NCBI GenBank assembly: GCA_027339965.1
Contig: DAHWNL010000078.1
Location: forward strand, 64,001 to 128,000
Source of the DNA: Granulicella sp.
Lineage (GTDB): Bacteria > Acidobacteriota > Terriglobia > Terriglobales > Acidobacteriaceae
DNA length: 64,000 nucleotides
Direction: 5' to 3'
Made by a program: the position numbers. Positions 18,001 to 33,000 of this stretch are shown here, piece by piece (position 1 is the stretch's first letter; every line of letters begins with the position of its first letter).

Positions 18001-21000
18001 GATGGAAGGAGGATTTAGGATGCGCAAAGACGAAGTGGCAGGGTCTGAATTCAAGATGCACCGGGATCCCGGAGATATCATCGGTGCGTGGAACGGCGTT
18101 GGCATTCGCATCCACCACGCCCGGAAGCTGGGAGAAGATAAATTGCAGGAAATAGCGGATCTCAGGGTCTTTCATGACCACGTACATGCCCTGCTGGGGT
18201 GACTGAATCAGGCAGAACTGGCTTTGAAATGCGCCCGTGTTGATGATCTTGGTGGGGTAACGATCGCCCCAATAGCCCAGGTTATTTGCAAAGCTGGGAT
18301 AAAGTTCCTGGGTCTGCAAAGCACCGACGAACATGGAATGCGCCAGCATCGCTGCGTTGGGCATGGGCGGAGTCAGATCCCCGAAGTAGGGATACTCGAC
18401 GGTATCAACGCTCAGATCCGACTGATTGTCAACCACACCATCAAACACAAGTTCCCCACTTTGCAGCGTCACGGTTGCTGTGAAGGTAATCGGTAGCACG
18501 CCTGCATGCTCACTGAGCAAATCTGTCCATTGGATCTGGACTCGGTTGTGAGCGATCTTCTCCACACGCTGGGCGCGTTGCTTGTGTCCGAGGACAAAGT
18601 TGTCGCTGCGTTCCGGCAGGGGAACCATCATGCGAAAAGAAGCACCGAGAGCAGGACGCCGCTCAATGGACCATTTGGTGGACTTGCGCTGCATCCGGGT
18701 GAGTGCGCCGGAGCGGGGATTGAATGCCAGGATCACCTCCGCGTCTTCGAGCACAACCTCGCCGCTGGCGGCAGCATCCTGCGCCACACTTGCGTTGTCA
18801 ACTTCGGCCAGAGCAGCCAGCGCGGTAAAGCCAGCCAGTTTATGAAACGCTCTACGATCCATTGCATTCTCCGTTTCGGGATGTCTATCCATGTCGGCGA
18901 CCCGCTGGGCGTTGCCTGCTCATTCAAGAGACCGGTTTTCTCAGGCTTGCTTGGCGTTCTGGTTGCACCACGTTGCACAGCTCGCAATCAAGCTTAGCCC
19001 AAGCAACCGCAACCTGATTTGAGCCCTGTTCAGGGGTCCGCAAACACCCTTCCAATGTCGAGGGAGCATGCCAGGCGCGGCGACGCAAAAAAGAGATGGC
19101 TGGTTGTGGATCGCGATGGAGAGAATCTCTGAAAATGGGCTCTCTGGAGAGAAACCTGTCGACACAGACCTCAAGAAGCATCTCTTGGAAGGCTTCCTGC
19201 GCTCCAGTGGACATCCAAACACGCACCCTCCAGCGTTCTTTGCTGAAAAGAGAAGCAGGCATAGGGCGCTGACCCGTGAGGTGGAGGAACAACTTGCAAT
19301 AATCGCTTCCAATCGATTATACGTGGAGCAGGAATCTGTGATCGAGTGCAGGTCCAGCTACCGCCCGGGCACAAGTGCGAGCACGGCAAGAAGCCGAATC
19401 ACAACACGCCATGCCGCTTTTGACGTAACCTTCTCGAAACGACCAACCCGCCTGAACGGATGGCTTTTGCGACCGGAAGCATCCTGCGGGCAGATCAATC
19501 AGAACGGAAGCTCGCAATTTGGCCACTAGAACCCCGGTTGAAGAACATACCGCGCCTCCTCCCCAGGCTCATGTCCAACGCTGGACGATTCTCTCGCTGC
19601 TCTTTGCGATCACGGTGATCAATATCATCGATCGTCAGACGGTGTCCGTATTGGCGCCCCTGATCAAGGCTGCCTTCCACCTCTCCGACGAAGCCTACGG
19701 GCGGATCGTCGCCGCTTTTCAATTCGGCATGATGAGCGGCGAACTGCCCATGGGACAATTGATGGACCAATGGGGATGCCGCATCGGCATGTGCGCCGCG
19801 GTTTGCTGGTGGTCGATGTGTACAGGCTCGCAGGCGTTCGTTCGCACTGGGATGCAGCTCGGCCTGTCACGGCTGGGAATGGGCGGAACCGAGTGCGGCA
19901 ATTTCTCCGGCGGGATGAAAGCCGTATCCGAGACCTTCCAAGAAAAGGAACGCACCTTCGCCATCGGCATCTTCAACAGTGGCAGTGTGGTTGGCGCCGT
20001 GATTGCCCCACCATTGATCGTCTTTCTGGTACAGCACTATGGGTTCCGCGCCGCATTTTTTGTTCCCGCATTGCTCGGGTTGATCTGGGTGGTGCTTTGG
20101 TGGTTCACCTACCCAAGCCATCGCGGCAAAGAGGTGCGGGAGAACGAGGCGCCAAAGACGCCCCTGAAGGCGCTGCTCGGCAACTCGTCTACATGGGCAG
20201 TGGTGCTCTGCCGAGCCTTCGTTGGCCCCGTGATTCAGTTTTACTGGTATTGGTTGCCCAGCTACCTTTACAGCGCGCGGCACATGACGATGACGCAGAT
20301 CGGCACCCTCTCCTGGATTCCCTTCTTCCTGGGCAGTGTCGGCGGCGTCGCCGGAGGGTGGGCAGCCGGTTGGCTGCAGCGGCGCGGAGCGACCCCACCC
20401 CTCGTTCGCAAACTCACCATGTACTTCAGCAGTATCCTTTGCCTGGCCAGTTTTCTCGTGCCGCTTGTGGCAGGGCCTATGCTGGCGCTCACTCTGATCA
20501 GCGTCGCCATCTTCGGACACAACTTTCTCTCGGTAAACATGTTTGGCGCAATTACGGATCTGTTTAGCGGCGCAGAAGTGGGACGGGCAACCGGAATGAG
20601 TGGCGTTGCAAGCGGACTGACCGGCCTGCTGTTTCCCCTACTCACCGGTTATCTCGTGGATCATGGCTCCTATCGGTCTGTCTTCATGATGGCGGCTCTG
20701 ATGCCGTTGATTGGAACCGTTGCGCTGTTTGTCCTGGCTCGGAAGTACCGGAGGATGACCGGAGATCAGAGAGTGCACGTCTGAGTTGGAAGACCTCCGG
20801 GGTGAGAGATGCTTCAACTGTGAGAGATGCTTTCAAGAACACGCGACGATCCGGCTGGCTTGACGCTGCACCTGTCTTGCCACGGAGTGGCGGCCTCAAG
20901 CACTTTGTTTACCTTGCTTATATTCTCCGCGCCCTCCGTTTCCAGCCATGCACGTAGCGCCGTAGGGCCTTGCTGCACAAAGATAGGAACGCCACCTTGC

Positions 21001-30000: not shown

Positions 30001-33000
30001 CGGCGCTTGCATAACCCGGGGAGCGGTTCGTCCTCTCCAGATCATTGTCCACCGTCTTCGGCACGCCAACAATCCGAATCACTCGGCCTGCCTTCCGGGC
30101 GCAATCGGCGAGCAGACCTGCGGCATGCATGGTTCCATTCCCTCCAATTACCAGAACGTCACTCACCCGCAGGCGTTCCAGGTGCCGTACGATCGCTGTA
30201 AGATCCTCTGCCTTCAACGGATAGCGAGATGCACCCAAGGTTGCTCCGGGCGAGCCTCGCAGGACGCGAAGATCTTGTAGGGAAAGACCGGTCAAGTCAG
30301 CCACTTGCCCCTGAGCTAGTCCTCTCATAGCCGAGCGGGCACCCAGGATTCGCCGGAAGGCCCCTGATCCGCGCGCTTCTTCCACAATGGATGCCAGTGT
30401 GGCATTCAGTACCGGCGTGGGTCCACCGGCCTGCACCACCAAGATGTTGCGCTCCGCCATGTGGGCTTTGCCTCCGCTGCGCTAAAGGCCCCTGATGTTA
30501 TCTTTAAAGAGCCGAAGAAAGTTGAAGTAGCACGTTTCGGCAAGACTATGATCGATTGTTATCGATTGTCAAGCCAACAGCGCGCCGTGGCGAGATCGTC
30601 GAACTCACCACAGATGCTCAAGTAGCCGCATCTTACGGTCATTCTTCCCTGCCTCGCCTGACTCCTGCAGAACAGAGCAACCTCTACCAACTGGACGGAC
30701 CCGGAGTTCACTCCTCGCTCGCCTGAAACGACCTGCTGCTGACAGGGGATTACCCCGGCCACGCACTGCGGCCTTCGCAGGAGCAGAACCTGGCGACACC
30801 TCAAATACGACACCACGGCCCATAGATCGGCTCCTCCAGCGGGCTCCGTTCTCAGCCTACGGCCCGGCAGAAGCGGAACCTCCACTGTGGCGCAGGAACA
30901 TACAGGGACGTGAGCGCCACAAAGCCATTTCACACCCCCACCCTTGCGCCAGCCAAGGCAATACGACTTCGCGGCCTCTTGCTTACGGAGGACCGGCGAC
31001 CAGTCTACCGCCGACTCCACAACCACAGGATTGCCGAATCACCAGACGGGCCTGTAAAACGATCCTCCGGGAAGGCAAGGCGTGATCGCCCTTGAGTCGC
31101 TCAAAGAGCAGCCGCGCACTCTCCCTGCCCAGAGAGTCAGAAGGCTGCTGCACAACCGACAGTCCCGGCGTCAGCATCTCGCCCAGATCGAAATCGTCAA
31201 AGGAAATCAACGCGATGTCACGGCCAGCGGAGATCCCCAGATCGCGAAGGCCTCGCAGAACATGCTGCGTAGTGACCCAATTCAAGGAAAAGATGGCCTC
31301 CGCTGTTTCTCCTCGGAACATCTCCTCTTCCAGCCATTTTGCGGTCAACAAACTTTCATGCTTGACGAAGCACTCTCTCGCCTCTAAGCCCGATTGAGCC
31401 ATGCTCCTGCGATATCCCGCTACGCGTTCTTTCGAAGTGTAAAGATAGGGCCGCGTACCGACCGCGACAATCCTTCGATACCCGTGGGCAATCATATGCT
31501 TCGTCGCCTCAGAGGCGCTTTGGCGGTTGGTGATGATGACGGAGTCAAAGTCAGTGCCGCGGACAAGTTGGTCGAACGTCACGGTGGGGATATTCGCCGG
31601 CAACAGATGACTTGACAGTCTTGGACCGCTGCTCGCCGGGGCAATGATCAAGCCGTCAATTCTGCGCCGTACGAGACTTTCAATCTCAGCGCTCTCTACC
31701 TCCGGCTGGCCTTCTGAGCTTGTGATGATGAGGACATAGCCGTTCGCGCGCGCGACCTGCTGAACGGCTTTGATCACCTCGATCACAAATGGATTTGCAA
31801 GGTTGGCGACAATAATACCGATTGTGCCTGATTTACGCGTCATCAGGCTCCGAGCCAGCTCATTCGGGCGGTAGCCTAGCCGCGCCATAACGGCCTGGAC
31901 TTTGCTTACCTTTTCCTGGCGGACGTTCGATGCCCCATTCAGAACGCGCGAAGCGGTTTTGAGAGAGACGCGCGCCTCACGAGCAACATCTGCCAGGGTG
32001 GGCGCCCGCTTGTTCCGTATAGGCATCTCGTTTTTACCCATCTCCCAGCTTGCCACATCCCAGCCCAGCATCCATGCTGCGCTTCTTTCAAATCCGGCTG
32101 CCAGAGCAAAGCCTTTTGTCCGTCAACAGGCTAGCACAAGAAAGATCAACGACATCGCAAACGATCTTCGTCCAACAAATTACCTGACTCCTGTCAGACT
32201 GAAATGCTTCTTTGCGGACTTGCGGGCACCCTGTGACACGCCATCAAGGAACGGAAGTCAGTACGAAAGGCTTTGAAAGTTCTATCTTGACAAACGCAAC
32301 GCTGGCTGCATAGCATTTTGTCGGATTCGTGACAGCGCTGTCAATCTTATTTGACGGACAAAGCTCCTCTCTCCCGGAGAAGAAATAAGGAGGGTGAGTT
32401 TTTCGCAACTGCCTCATCAGCGCAAGACCGTTTTGACCCATTCGCGCAAGCCGGGTGGCCTTGCTGAACGACCATCCTTCGCCCGGGAAGGCTAGCGGTC
32501 TGTGAATACCCGAGGATTCCCCCTGAGGCTTCTCCTTCAGAGTTCTCAGGGGTCTGTATGAGAAATCTCAATGCCGGGCAAGCGCGGCAGGGGGCCGTAG
32601 GAGGAACACAATGAGCCATGGAAAATCCCAACACTCAGCGTTTCGACCAATGGTTGGAAACCTATGCTGGCAATCTCATCTCCTTTATCTTGCAGTACTC
32701 GCACTACTGACGCTGCCGCTGGTAACGCCAGTCTGTGGGCAGGAGTTTCGCGCTACGATTACCGGCGAGGTGCAAGATCCATCAGGCGCCGTCATTCAGA
32801 ACGCGAAGGTCACGGCGGTCAATGTTGACACCAAGGTCTCCGCCTCGGCAAAAACAGATACCCGGGGCGTCTATTCGCTGCTTTATCTGCTGCCTGGAAC
32901 CTATACCGTTACAGCTACGGCACCGCGCTTTCAAACCGAAGTTTACAACCGCGTCCGTCTGGATTCAGCCCAACAATTGGGTCTCAACCTGACCCTGAAG

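Follow-up and report, generated by a model that had tools for sequence, protein, structure and literature searches.

The window analysed here is a stretch of 64,000 nucleotides from a contig of Granulicella sp. (Acidobacteriota). It holds an island of ten genes (Table 1), all of them intact open reading frames of the families that an earlier genome survey had assigned. The survey's finding of one operon of ten genes has to be amended, as the MFS gene lies on the opposite strand, convergent with lacD across a gap of 29 nt, and the isomerase and gntR genes are separated by 255 nt. Contigs from two other studies cover the locus in long pieces (21584–31555; 19489–23965 and 23942–33500), and it is therefore no assembly artefact.

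Table 1. Features of the island and its flanks, in positions of the window
Feature	Position	Strand	Basis or remark
Whole island	19519..30460	nine genes minus, MFS gene plus	ten genes
DUF6259 protein, Tat-like N-terminus, candidate new sulfo-glycosidase	16658..18892	-	divergent from MFS gene
MFS transporter (D-galactonate-transporter-like), candidate sulfo-sugar importer	19519..20784	+	family matches; convergent with lacD
Class I LacD-type aldolase, predicted sulfo-ketose-1-phosphate aldolase	20814..21857	-	PRK12858, structure search
SlcC-like (S)-sulfolactate dehydrogenase (D-2-hydroxyacid dehydrogenase without ACT domain), predicted	21918..22940	-	homology
ComC-like (R)-sulfolactate dehydrogenase (Ldh_2), predicted	22880..23950	-	NCBIfam, orthologue annotation
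SuyB, predicted (R)-sulfolactate sulfo-lyase large subunit	24021..25184	-	sequence group
SuyA, SAF domain	25188..25466	-	SAF match; homologues in sulfonate clusters
GabD/SlaB-type aldehyde dehydrogenase (ALDH), predicted sulfolactaldehyde dehydrogenase	25497..26978	-	homology
GntR/FCD regulator	26956..27609	-	Pfam
Isomerase, FucI/AraA fold, predicted sulfo-hexose isomerase	27865..29235	-	separate clade, predicted structure, conserved residues
PfkA-family kinase (PF00365, family of SqiK), predicted ATP-dependent sulfo-ketose 1-kinase	29219..30460	-	PRK14072
Sigma-70-like promoter match	30545..30572	-	85 nt upstream of pfk; lead only
LacI regulator	30983..32071	-	family match; adjoins TonB receptor/GH3/GH78-like locus

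The pfk gene precedes the isomerase gene in 57/57 Acidobacteriota genome loci and 56/56 metagenome loci, and the lower module follows downstream as ALDH-suyAB-comC-slcC in 46/47 of the genome loci and is present in 22/25 of the metagenome loci, a conservation far beyond chance. Among full-length acidobacterial loci, the MFS gene is found in 27/35 and lacD lies within 10 kb in 27/35 (absent within that distance in 8/35); gntR accompanies 39/62 acidobacterial loci, and its product is likely the local regulator. TauE was not found in the acidobacterial island loci, and neither SqvB nor another mutarotase was recognised in the island of this window. Sigma-70-like matches are no more frequent across the region than chance predicts (3 against 4.0 expected). 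The LacI gene probably belongs to the flanking locus and not to the island; locus L022, which is 96% identical, is the only one where pfk has a close homologue of it as neighbour.

Isomerase, kinase and aldolase

The AF2 model of the isomerase (pLDDT 92) has TM scores of 0.81–0.85 to L-arabinose isomerases, and residues E295, D319, H332, H430 and H431, which we take to be the metal ligands, are invariant in 19 aligned rows. The FucI/AraA-type fold is the part of the survey's label "SqvD/SftI-like" that stands, whereas orthology does not. The protein scores 145 bits on the SftI model NF048012 (NCBIfam; cut-off 700), its clade scores 124–172 bits in 10/11 members tested (the other falling below the E threshold), mostly lower than 65 more distant family members with 153–487 bits. 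In a quick tree, built without a characterised SqvD row and with the Zymomonas and Chlorohelix proteins left out, the clade is separate from the best SftI-scoring proteins (SH-aLRT 99, stem 1.72). On these sequence comparisons the isomerase forms a clade of its own, recognised here for the first time, that is neither SftI nor SqvD, and a change of substrate is plausible because of the low SftI scores and the long stem.

The kinase scores 360 bits on PRK14072 (cut-off 273). All cluster kinases (52/52) carry GGNG (G109) and K135, a pattern that we read as ATP-type, the type also of the Chlorohelix pfk-isomerase pair; five housekeeping relatives have GGND or GGGD. The island shares with sulfo-EMP2 the adjacency of a PF00365 kinase and a PF02952 isomerase, although the PF02952 match is weak here (24.9 bits, below the cut-off of 29.3). 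The class II aldolase SqiA (PF01116) of that pathway is replaced by a PF01791 aldolase, and a Zymomonas SqiA-like query found no match in this genome at E 1e-5. The aldolase scores 400 bits on PRK12858 (cut-off 184) and resembles LacD structures (TM 0.89; 46–48% identity, E about 1e-88). The next-best structure, at 30%, is 8TNF, a "sulfohexulose-1-phosphate aldolase" from strain Merri. Assignment as a YihT-type sulfofructose-1-phosphate aldolase was rejected, the protein being much closer to LacD than to YihT (19–20% identity, E about 1e-7). A second LacD paralogue lies on another contig of this genome (C10).

Besides Acidobacteriota, seven further named phyla have the isomerase clade. Eighteen non-acidobacterial loci hold transketolase genes in seven cases (with RpiB in six of these), transaldolase plus ALDH in four, Pfk, SuyAB, ComC and SlcC together in two, SuyAB in five, TauE in four, a LarA-type racemase in three, a SauS-like dehydrogenase with a CoA ligase in one and a YihQ-like GH31 in four. 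Other phyla thus pair the clade with sulfo-TK, sulfo-TAL or EMP genes, which is new here; the sets are those described around SqvD in the available accounts of sulfo-TK, sulfo-TAL and sulfo-EMP2. In the linked long transaldolases GASFW replaces GASFR (14/14), and 4/5 genomes tested with such a copy also carry a GASFR copy; the linked short ones lack the phosphate Ser (4/4), and both kinds have His after TTNPx. Judged from these motifs, linked transaldolases have lost a phosphate-binding Arg, also a new observation.

These data bear on the reading that the upper genes act on an ordinary or other sugar (e.g. tagatose or a rare hexose) and that only the lower module has to do with sulfonates, as a scavenger of sulfolactate or sulfolactaldehyde, with no shared flux. 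It would account for the fact that no upper enzyme passes a sulfo-specific family cut-off, for locus L027, which keeps pfk-isomerase-gntR without the lower half, and for G163, which keeps suyAB-comC without the upper half, and it is near the generic annotation (pfkA, tal, ssdA, lacD) in the available parts of Hausmann 2018 (PMC6018796). We nevertheless consider it improbable in view of the near-complete linkage in genome and metagenome loci, the repeated placement of the isomerase clade beside sulfonate genes in unrelated phyla with differing partner enzymes, and the altered transaldolases.

Desulfonation module and sulfite

The lower half is, by homology, a typical SuyAB/SlcC/ComC module, and the predicted identities of its four enzymes are close to certain from homology and context. 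The SAF and GD_AH subunits are split and adjacent, and SuyB belongs to a tight group apart from UxaA/GarD: 13 plasmid matches at 62–72% are followed by a drop to below 40%. SuyB is 68–72% identical to plasmid-encoded homologues, and its top group takes in the hps/DHPS clusters of Cupriavidus pinatubonensis and Paracoccus versutus; SuyA is 48–52% identical to SuyA of Paracoccus, Cupriavidus and Sinorhizobium sulfonate clusters. The two dehydrogenases of the putative racemase, one D-2-hydroxyacid and one Ldh_2 type, adjoin suyAB in 46/47 loci. The SlcC-like protein is 39% identical to a Sinorhizobium mexicanum neighbour of suyAB. The ComC-like protein is 34% identical to a plasmid-encoded homologue and has L-sulfolactate dehydrogenase (NF040650) as its best NCBIfam model, at 266 against a cut-off of 500, below which the S. 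mexicanum neighbour likewise falls. The ALDH matches PDB 8C54, which we take to be RlGabD, with E 5e-128 (SSADHs score higher), and keeps R174, R292, E264 and C298. The first two correspond to the Arg171/Arg289 pair described for SlaB/GabD sulfolactaldehyde dehydrogenase in the section consulted of PMC10599462, but the pair is also present in SSADH and is non-discriminating.

The gene dsrA, absent from this genome, is present in 17/50 island carriers against 10/200 family genomes, aprA in only 3/18, and the island adjoins a dsr operon in eight genomes. This suggests that relatives with the island beside dsr genes themselves produce, out of a sulfo-sugar, the sulfite that they respire. Sulfolactate-derived sulfite was proposed as electron acceptor in the acidobacterium SbA5 by Hausmann 2018 (PMC6018796), whose supplement, as far as available, lists transcripts of the SbA5 copies of tal, pfk, ALDH and suyAB from incubations of anoxic peat (detection frequency 0.75–0.875).

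Glycosidase candidates and the sugar

A search of 33 acidobacterial genomes for sulfoquinovosidases of YihQ or GH188 type, with one query of each, gave 0/33, and the cluster and genome studied here likewise yielded none. The GH188-type query is so labelled from its matches 8QC2/8QC3, which are presumably GH188. The DUF6259 protein yielded only DUF6259 matches, below cut-off, and not those of a GH31 sulfoquinovosidase with Q288/R301/W304/Y508; its atlas neighbours are of GH27/36/31 type, and a match of 99 columns around the YihQ-type nucleophile (hhalign probability 65%) places that residue opposite D503, which is invariant. DUF6259 occurs in 34/50 carriers against 4/200 family genomes, three of these four being carriers, and most copies are not adjacent to the island. 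This co-occurrence and the link to dsrAB in relatives are new here and had no place in the survey's account. Together with the isomerase clade, the island points to two new enzyme types, the second a possible third kind of sulfo-glycosidase.

In the YihQ-like GH31s of non-acidobacterial carriers, Gln stands at E. coli R301, a sulfonate-binding residue, in 9/9. This change would suit another substrate, for instance sulforhamnose or an amino sugar bearing a sulfonate, and so would the genes for NagB-like deaminase and amidohydrolase that L087 and L093 have close to the isomerase. The proposal is very doubtful, as deaminase and deacetylase are not conserved in acidobacterial loci.

The same route acting on sulfofucose (6-sulfo-D-galactose), through sulfotagatose and sulfotagatose-1-phosphate to LacD cleavage, deserves more weight. 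AraA converts galactose to tagatose, and the isomerase fold is AraA-like; the aldolase is homologous to tagatose-bisphosphate aldolases; GH27 and GH42 genes lie in or beside the lacD-MFS unit in eight and seven fetched regions (duplicates included), and L093/L097 carry GH4 alpha-galactosidase genes close to the isomerase; known sulfoquinovosidases are missing as described above. Transaldolase and transketolase prefer D-fructo ketoses, however, and the pairing of the clade with transketolase plus RpiB and with transaldolases therefore favours sulfoquinovose (SQ); LacD enzymes also bind FBP (title of PDB 5F2G). This DNA derives from mine-drainage/sediment runs, and Thermoplasma glycans are a reported source of sulfofucose, yet carriers turn up commonly in assemblies from soil and peat and, in the available text of PMC12421959, sulfofucose is reported only twice. 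We regard sulfofucose as rather unlikely and SQ as about an even prospect.

Proposed route and known systems

Gene context and residues give good support to EMP-type cleavage of a 6-sulfo-hexose joined to SlcC/ComC/SuyAB desulfonation, as the survey had predicted, and we think it probable that the island serves to degrade a 6-deoxy-6-sulfo-hexose, with SQ the likeliest, completely in one cell. The sugar would enter via the MFS transporter, be isomerised from sulfo-aldose to sulfo-ketose, phosphorylated at position 1 with ATP, and cleaved by LacD in a class I aldol reaction to DHAP and (S)-sulfolactaldehyde, which the ALDH would oxidise to (S)-sulfolactate. SlcC and ComC would invert this via sulfopyruvate, and SuyAB would cleave the C–S bond of (R)-sulfolactate to give pyruvate and sulfite. 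The upper route would be a mosaic of SqiK-family kinase, new isomerase clade and LacD aldolase, with a parallel sulfo-TAL branch in some relatives using the phosphate-site-altered transaldolase. Sulfite is probably assimilated or exported in this dsr-less genome, and in many relatives probably feeds the adjoining DsrAB respiratory operon.

More tentatively, with the balance slightly against it, soil and peat Acidobacteria may carry a self-contained sulfo-sugar respiration island, in which SQ is released by a new type of glycosidase (DUF6259, or a Gfo/TIM pair in the periplasm), the new isomerase clade with Pfk/LacD or altered transaldolase splits it, SuyAB releases sulfite and the adjoining dsr operon reduces it to sulfide, in genomes mostly unable to activate sulfate. 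If so, one cell does work otherwise described for two-member consortia, and what sulfite-only dsrAB Acidobacteria respire is explained. The island offers, in a phylum abundant in soil and peat, a defined set of enzymes that can be put to the test. It would also supply the missing upstream source of sulfolactate, the sulfite donor proposed for these Acidobacteria in Hausmann 2018 (PMC6018796), a point of relevance to the cryptic sulfur cycle of wetlands.

The lack of precedent implied by the survey, which had found no relevant paper, does not hold, since Hausmann 2018, Wei 2022 (PMC9594981) and Stewart 2025 (PMC12421959) cover parts of the system, the latter two with sulfoglycolysis-plus-SuyAB clusters. 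In the accessible parts of Hausmann 2018, suyAB, slcC and comC are published for an acidobacterial MAG with the same cluster, Ca. Sulfotelmatomonas gaucii SbA5, whose island (L039) is orthologous, with gene lengths matching SBA5_30232, 30235, 30237 and 30243; its orthologues are annotated comC (74% to the island protein) and slcC. The authors took the upper genes for generic enzymes of glycolysis, PPP, TCA or GalNAc metabolism. Supplementary file 2 does not contain the isomerase tag SBA5_30234, and the word "sulfoquinovose" has no occurrence in the accessible text and supplements.

The sulfo-EMP2 pathway of Bacillus urumqiensis (SqvD, SqiK, SqiA, SlaB; Liu 2021, via sections of PMC9594981 and PMC12890257) resembles the island in its FucI-family isomerase, PF00365 kinase, aldolase and SLA dehydrogenase. 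The island differs in that its isomerase belongs to another clade, a class I LacD aldolase takes the place of class II SqiA, YihQ and SqvB are lacking, sulfolactate would be cleaved instead of excreted, and the phylum is another. Extended sulfo-TAL plus SuyAB clusters of Thermotogae/Chloroflexi are likewise predicted to use SQ completely, with sulfoglycolysis joined to SuyAB, but with TAL instead of kinase and aldolase; section 11 of PMC9594981 mentions neither the racemase pair nor a dsr link. EMP-type sulfofucolysis was proposed, but not found in Paracoccus, in the available text of Stewart 2025 (PMC12421959), and should the sugar be sulfofucose, the island would be that route. One-cell sulfofucose mineralisation was shown there: the tandem sulfofucolytic ED/SlcC-ComC-SuyAB system of Paracoccus wurundjeri takes a sulfo-hexose to sulfite with the same lower module, and its cluster also has a PF01791 aldolase. 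Its upper route is ED and shown in vitro, whereas the genes of the island predict an upper route of EMP type that includes a proper isomerase and an SLA dehydrogenase of the GabD type.

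Organisation and conservation of the island

The island is real and conserved. The gene positions given in the survey's finding are borne out and all ORFs are intact, but its reading of the ten genes as one operon is ruled out by the strand of the MFS gene and by the intergenic gaps. From pfk to lacD the successive gaps are -17, 255, -23, 30, 3, 70, -61 and 60 nt (longest ORF starts), the end of the MFS gene lies 29 nt from lacD, and the MFS gene and a DUF6259 gene (744 aa) diverge across a 626-nt gap. The strand switch and the gaps therefore make the island one of at least two transcription units; a promoter and terminator scan of the region gave matches at chance level. 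Long contig pieces from two other studies cover the island, and its DNA was detected in mine-drainage and sediment metagenomes; no RNA data set was listed as containing it.

Coordinates of the island, its surroundings and features in loci (L) compared with it
Sequence	Positions	Strand	Content
Window	19519..30460	minus; MFS plus	Island; minus-strand order pfk, isomerase, gntR, ALDH, suyA, suyB, comC, slcC, lacD
Window	13093-15111		Arylsulfotransferase-family (ASST) protein, ~4.4 kb from island
Window	32611-43193		TonB receptor, GH3, GH78-like six-hairpin protein, FAD sugar-alcohol/lactone oxidase, SDR
Window	56827-62853		Fe-S flavoprotein, cytochrome b, multi-heme cytochrome c, consecutive; respiratory complex-like
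L020, Zymomonas mobilis plasmid pZZM402	128-11361		Class II aldolase, mutarotase, FucI-family isomerase, TonB receptor, two MFS, SSADH-type gene
L021, Ca. Chlorohelix plasmid	3434-19283		pfk-isomerase pair, ALDH, sulfite reductase and siroheme genes, ABC transporter, Gfo, D-2-hydroxyacid DH, threonine-synthase-like gene
L095, spirochaete	13654-14973		LarA-family racemase
L066	17250-18815		521 aa, no Pfam/NCBIfam match; recurrent neighbour in 4 genome and 4 metagenome loci
L027	6944-8182		412 aa, no Pfam/NCBIfam match; recurrent neighbour in 8 regions

The isomerase is present in 4/200 family genomes and has a close match in 1/400 phylum genomes, with three further weak matches. A scan of species genomes gave 186 relatives; the best 80, comprising 62 loci from Acidobacteriota and 18 from other groups, were retained. 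Among these, pfk lies upstream of the isomerase in all 57 Acidobacteriota loci with enough sequence, and ALDH, suyA, suyB, comC and slcC then follow in 46/47; the 35 with 10 kb on each side hold lacD (27), MFS (27), gntR (22) and transaldolase (10). In the best 80 of 325 metagenome matches, pfk is upstream in 56/56 and the lower module is present in 22/25. Because the genomes are kin, these counts show conservation and not independent events. The 200-genome family sample also contains seven other SuyB loci (66-74%) with different neighbours and no isomerase, one remnant SuyB locus, and a genome with a pfk at 47% and no surrounding island. A second acidobacterial suyAB type (~70%; L116-L119, L122) occurs with GntR and a divergent Gfo gene and, where the locus extends, with creatininase-like and cupin-like ORFs (by eye), a D-2-hydroxyacid dehydrogenase and a transporter; it would be another organosulfonate pathway.

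Isomerase, kinase, aldolase and transaldolase

The isomerase model adopts an AraA/FucI fold (pLDDT 92, TM 0.81-0.85), and acidic and His residues are invariant in the alignment. Orthology with SftI is rejected: of the 11 members of its clade, ten reach 124-172 bits against the SftI model (cut-off 700) and one falls below the E threshold, 65 more distant relatives score 153-487 bits, and in a quick tree of 71 rows, no characterised SqvD among them, the clade sits on a stem 1.72 long with support 99. Annotated SftI was not found in the plasmid search.

The clade is linked to sulfo-sugars because of its gene company in other phyla. Among the 18 non-acidobacterial loci in the best 80 of 186, transketolase genes occur in seven and RpiB in six; three of the transketolase loci also have an iron ADH, and one has a CoA ligase and a dehydrogenase resembling SauS (500 vs 600 bits). 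Transaldolase with ALDH is found in four, and three of these four carry suyAB with a LarA-type racemase rather than SlcC/ComC; two Rubrobacter-group loci combine Pfk with suyAB, slcC and comC, and TauE and a YihQ-like GH31 are each present in four. These partner sets are those reviewed for SqvD in passages of PMC9594981. That the upper half is unrelated to sulfo-sugars is, given this company, improbable.

Sulfo-TK-like clusters were seen in Lentisphaerota and Armatimonadota (L085, L087, L089, L090, L092), with a class II aldolase but no visible kinase in four, a GH116-like gene in three and a NagB-like gene in L087. A Lentisphaerae-locus class II aldolase was rejected as SqiA-like, being no nearer to 8Q57/8Q58, which we take to be SqiA, than to FBP aldolases. 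The Zymomonas plasmid locus, whose Gfo protein matches 8QC2 (E 4e-102), looks like a sulfo-EMP2-type cluster; no kinase was seen within the tabulated span. The Chlorohelix plasmid locus is possibly another sulfo-sugar desulfonation variant.

A kinase position which presumably marks ATP use when occupied by Gly is Gly in 52/52 aligned acidobacterial kinases and in two Rubrobacter-group and the Chlorohelix kinases, and Asp in five housekeeping relatives. In the 6-phosphate loop, the His249 equivalent is Leu in 52/52, and also in one housekeeping relative. The aldolase is LacD (TM 0.89, 47%); its next structural neighbour is 8TNF, titled sulfohexulose-1-phosphate aldolase (30%), ahead of YihT (19-20%). 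The genome has a second LacD, and comparison with two non-cluster paralogues gave 20 differing columns, none with an assignable role.

A long transaldolase directly precedes pfk in 14 acidobacterial loci. In all 14, GASFW replaces GASFR, and a second copy with GASFR is present in 4/5 genomes checked. The Ser of this motif is missing from the four short transaldolases, found in spirochaete and planctomycete loci, and TTNPx is followed by His in long and short enzymes alike. The spirochaete enzyme was rejected as a BmSF-TAL relative, since ordinary transaldolases are closer. The altered residues are assumed to bind phosphate; two unrelated kinds of transaldolase next to one isomerase clade would then both have lost contacts to phosphate, which fits a sulfonate substrate.

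Lower half and dsr genes in relatives

Nothing in the lower half is unusual, and it has been published for Acidobacteria before. SuyB groups closely with 13 plasmid records at 62-72%, the next falling below 40%; this group takes in the DHPS-cluster copies of Cupriavidus pinatubonensis and Paracoccus versutus. The dehydrogenases, one of the D-2-hydroxyacid and one of the Ldh_2 family, form the pair named SlcC/ComC. Hausmann 2018 (PMC6018796), in the parts available, describes suyAB, slcC and comC in MAG SbA5, which is locus L039, and suggests sulfolactate-derived sulfite as electron acceptor. In one supplementary file the genes upstream carry the generic names tal, pfkA and ssdA, lacD downstream is assigned to GalNAc degradation, and no entry bears the tag that the SbA5 isomerase should have. 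As the table columns are read here, tal, pfkA, ssdA and suyAB were detected in 75-88% of anoxic incubations, comC in 54%, slcC in 42% and lacD in 33%, with abundance ranks of 18 for suyA and 19 for dsrC. In spirochaete loci L091, L095 and L096 a LarA-family protein directly follows suyAB in place of slcC/comC; that of L095 scores above the LarAH5 cut-off, and these proteins are candidate sulfolactate racemases.

The most surprising result is adjacency to dsr genes, which concerns relatives and not the present genome (98.9% complete), where dsrA was not found. The dsrA search covered carriers, i.e. genomes holding the island isomerase, for 50 of the 62 Acidobacteriota loci among the best 80 of 186. 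Seventeen have dsrA above cut-off and one further has a fragment; SbA5 is in this set, as are two genomes whose loci are among the closest (89%, 92%). In the family sample dsrA occurs in 10/200 genomes. aprA is present in 3/18 dsrA-holding carriers, of unstated completeness, versus 8 of the 10 dsrA-positive family genomes, which lack the island. The intervening DNA was read in the eight genomes where coordinates suggested a shared contig, and in 8/8 the island is joined to dsrAB, dsrL, dsrC, dsrMK(J)OP, dsrN and cysG, separated only by TIM, Gfo, TonB-receptor and LysR genes and, in most cases, one for a YeiH-family exporter. Seven of the eight, close kin, share one arrangement and G613 differs; in the remaining dsrA-positive carriers dsr is on other contigs or outside the DNA read. 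For one linked carrier, MAG BA147 (L042), the available part of Dyksma and Pester 2023 (PMC10564751) gives little or no dsrAB transcription in a bioreactor, a result whose scope does not extend to sulfo-sugar use. In the present genome, sulfite could pass to an assimilatory sulfite reductase or a distant TauE-like protein. The tabulated Fe-S flavoprotein is 33% identical to DsrL over 215 aa.

The sugar, candidate glycosidases and known pathways

The stereochemistry of transaldolase and transketolase favours sulfofructose and hence sulfoquinovose (SQ), to which we give roughly an even chance. Several observations count against SQ. Neither a YihQ-like nor a GH188-like gene turned up in the present genome or in 32 other acidobacterial carriers tested. 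Nine YihQ-like GH31s from 9/18 non-acidobacterial genomes (L211-L219) all have Gln at E. coli YihQ R301, named for sulfonate recognition in the legend of a 2026 preprint; four of the nine carry Arg at the preceding position. Genes of alpha- and beta-galactosidase families lie in or beside the lacD-MFS unit of one lineage, and GH4 genes lie near the isomerase in two other loci. An isomerase-kinase-PF01791 route via sulfotagatose is proposed, and undetected in Paracoccus, in the portion of Stewart 2025 (PMC12421959) available. Sulfofucose seems unlikely as the sugar, and another sulfo-sugar no likelier; SQ is kept as the leading reading.

Two proteins are leads as candidate glycosidases. DUF6259 orthologues occur in 34/50 carriers vs 4/200 family genomes (three of these four being carriers), and a Tat-bearing Gfo/Idh/MocA protein, whose gene mostly has a TIM-barrel partner and which was not found in the present genome, in 35/50 vs 5/200 (two being carriers); kinship inflates both contrasts. 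The DUF6259 protein resembles GH27/36/31 enzymes, and there is a weak alignment of its invariant D503 to the nucleophile of YihQ-type enzymes; copies are mostly distant from the island (1/14 fetched nearby). The best NCBIfam model for the Gfo/Idh/MocA protein is glycoside 3-dehydrogenase, far under cut-off. A complete same-genus genome lacks isomerase, kinase and DUF6259 together, and because the flanking GH78-like gene is missing too, the whole region may simply come and go together. The GH78-like gene also adjoins DUF6259 in L264 and L266; in the window it belongs to a polysaccharide-utilisation-like locus flanking the island.

Literature searches, judged largely from listings and not reaching subscription papers (e.g. 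Liu 2020, Liu 2021) or most supplements, showed no paper on a function for DUF6259, on this isomerase clade, on a LacD-based route of EMP type or on any acidobacterial sulfoglycolysis. 'Acidobacter' occurs 0 times in the available text of PMC13372026, PMC12890257, PMC13436972, PMC9594981, PMC10599462 and PMC10665668, whose supplements could list acidobacterial clusters. In the parts of each source available, Stewart 2025 (PMC12421959) demonstrates that one cell can mineralise sulfofucose through an ED route, PMC9594981 predicts one-cell mineralisation for sulfo-TAL with SuyAB, hybrid sulfo-EMP clusters are known (PMC10665668), and a 2026 review (PMC13436972) holds one-cell SQ mineralisation undemonstrated outside oxygenase routes. 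The island differs from sulfo-EMP2 in isomerase orthology, aldolase class and sulfoquinovosidase, and by analogy would work like an extended sulfo-EMP pathway. The concept has precedent; what is added here is the proximity to dsr genes in relatives, together with enzymes that are candidates for new types.
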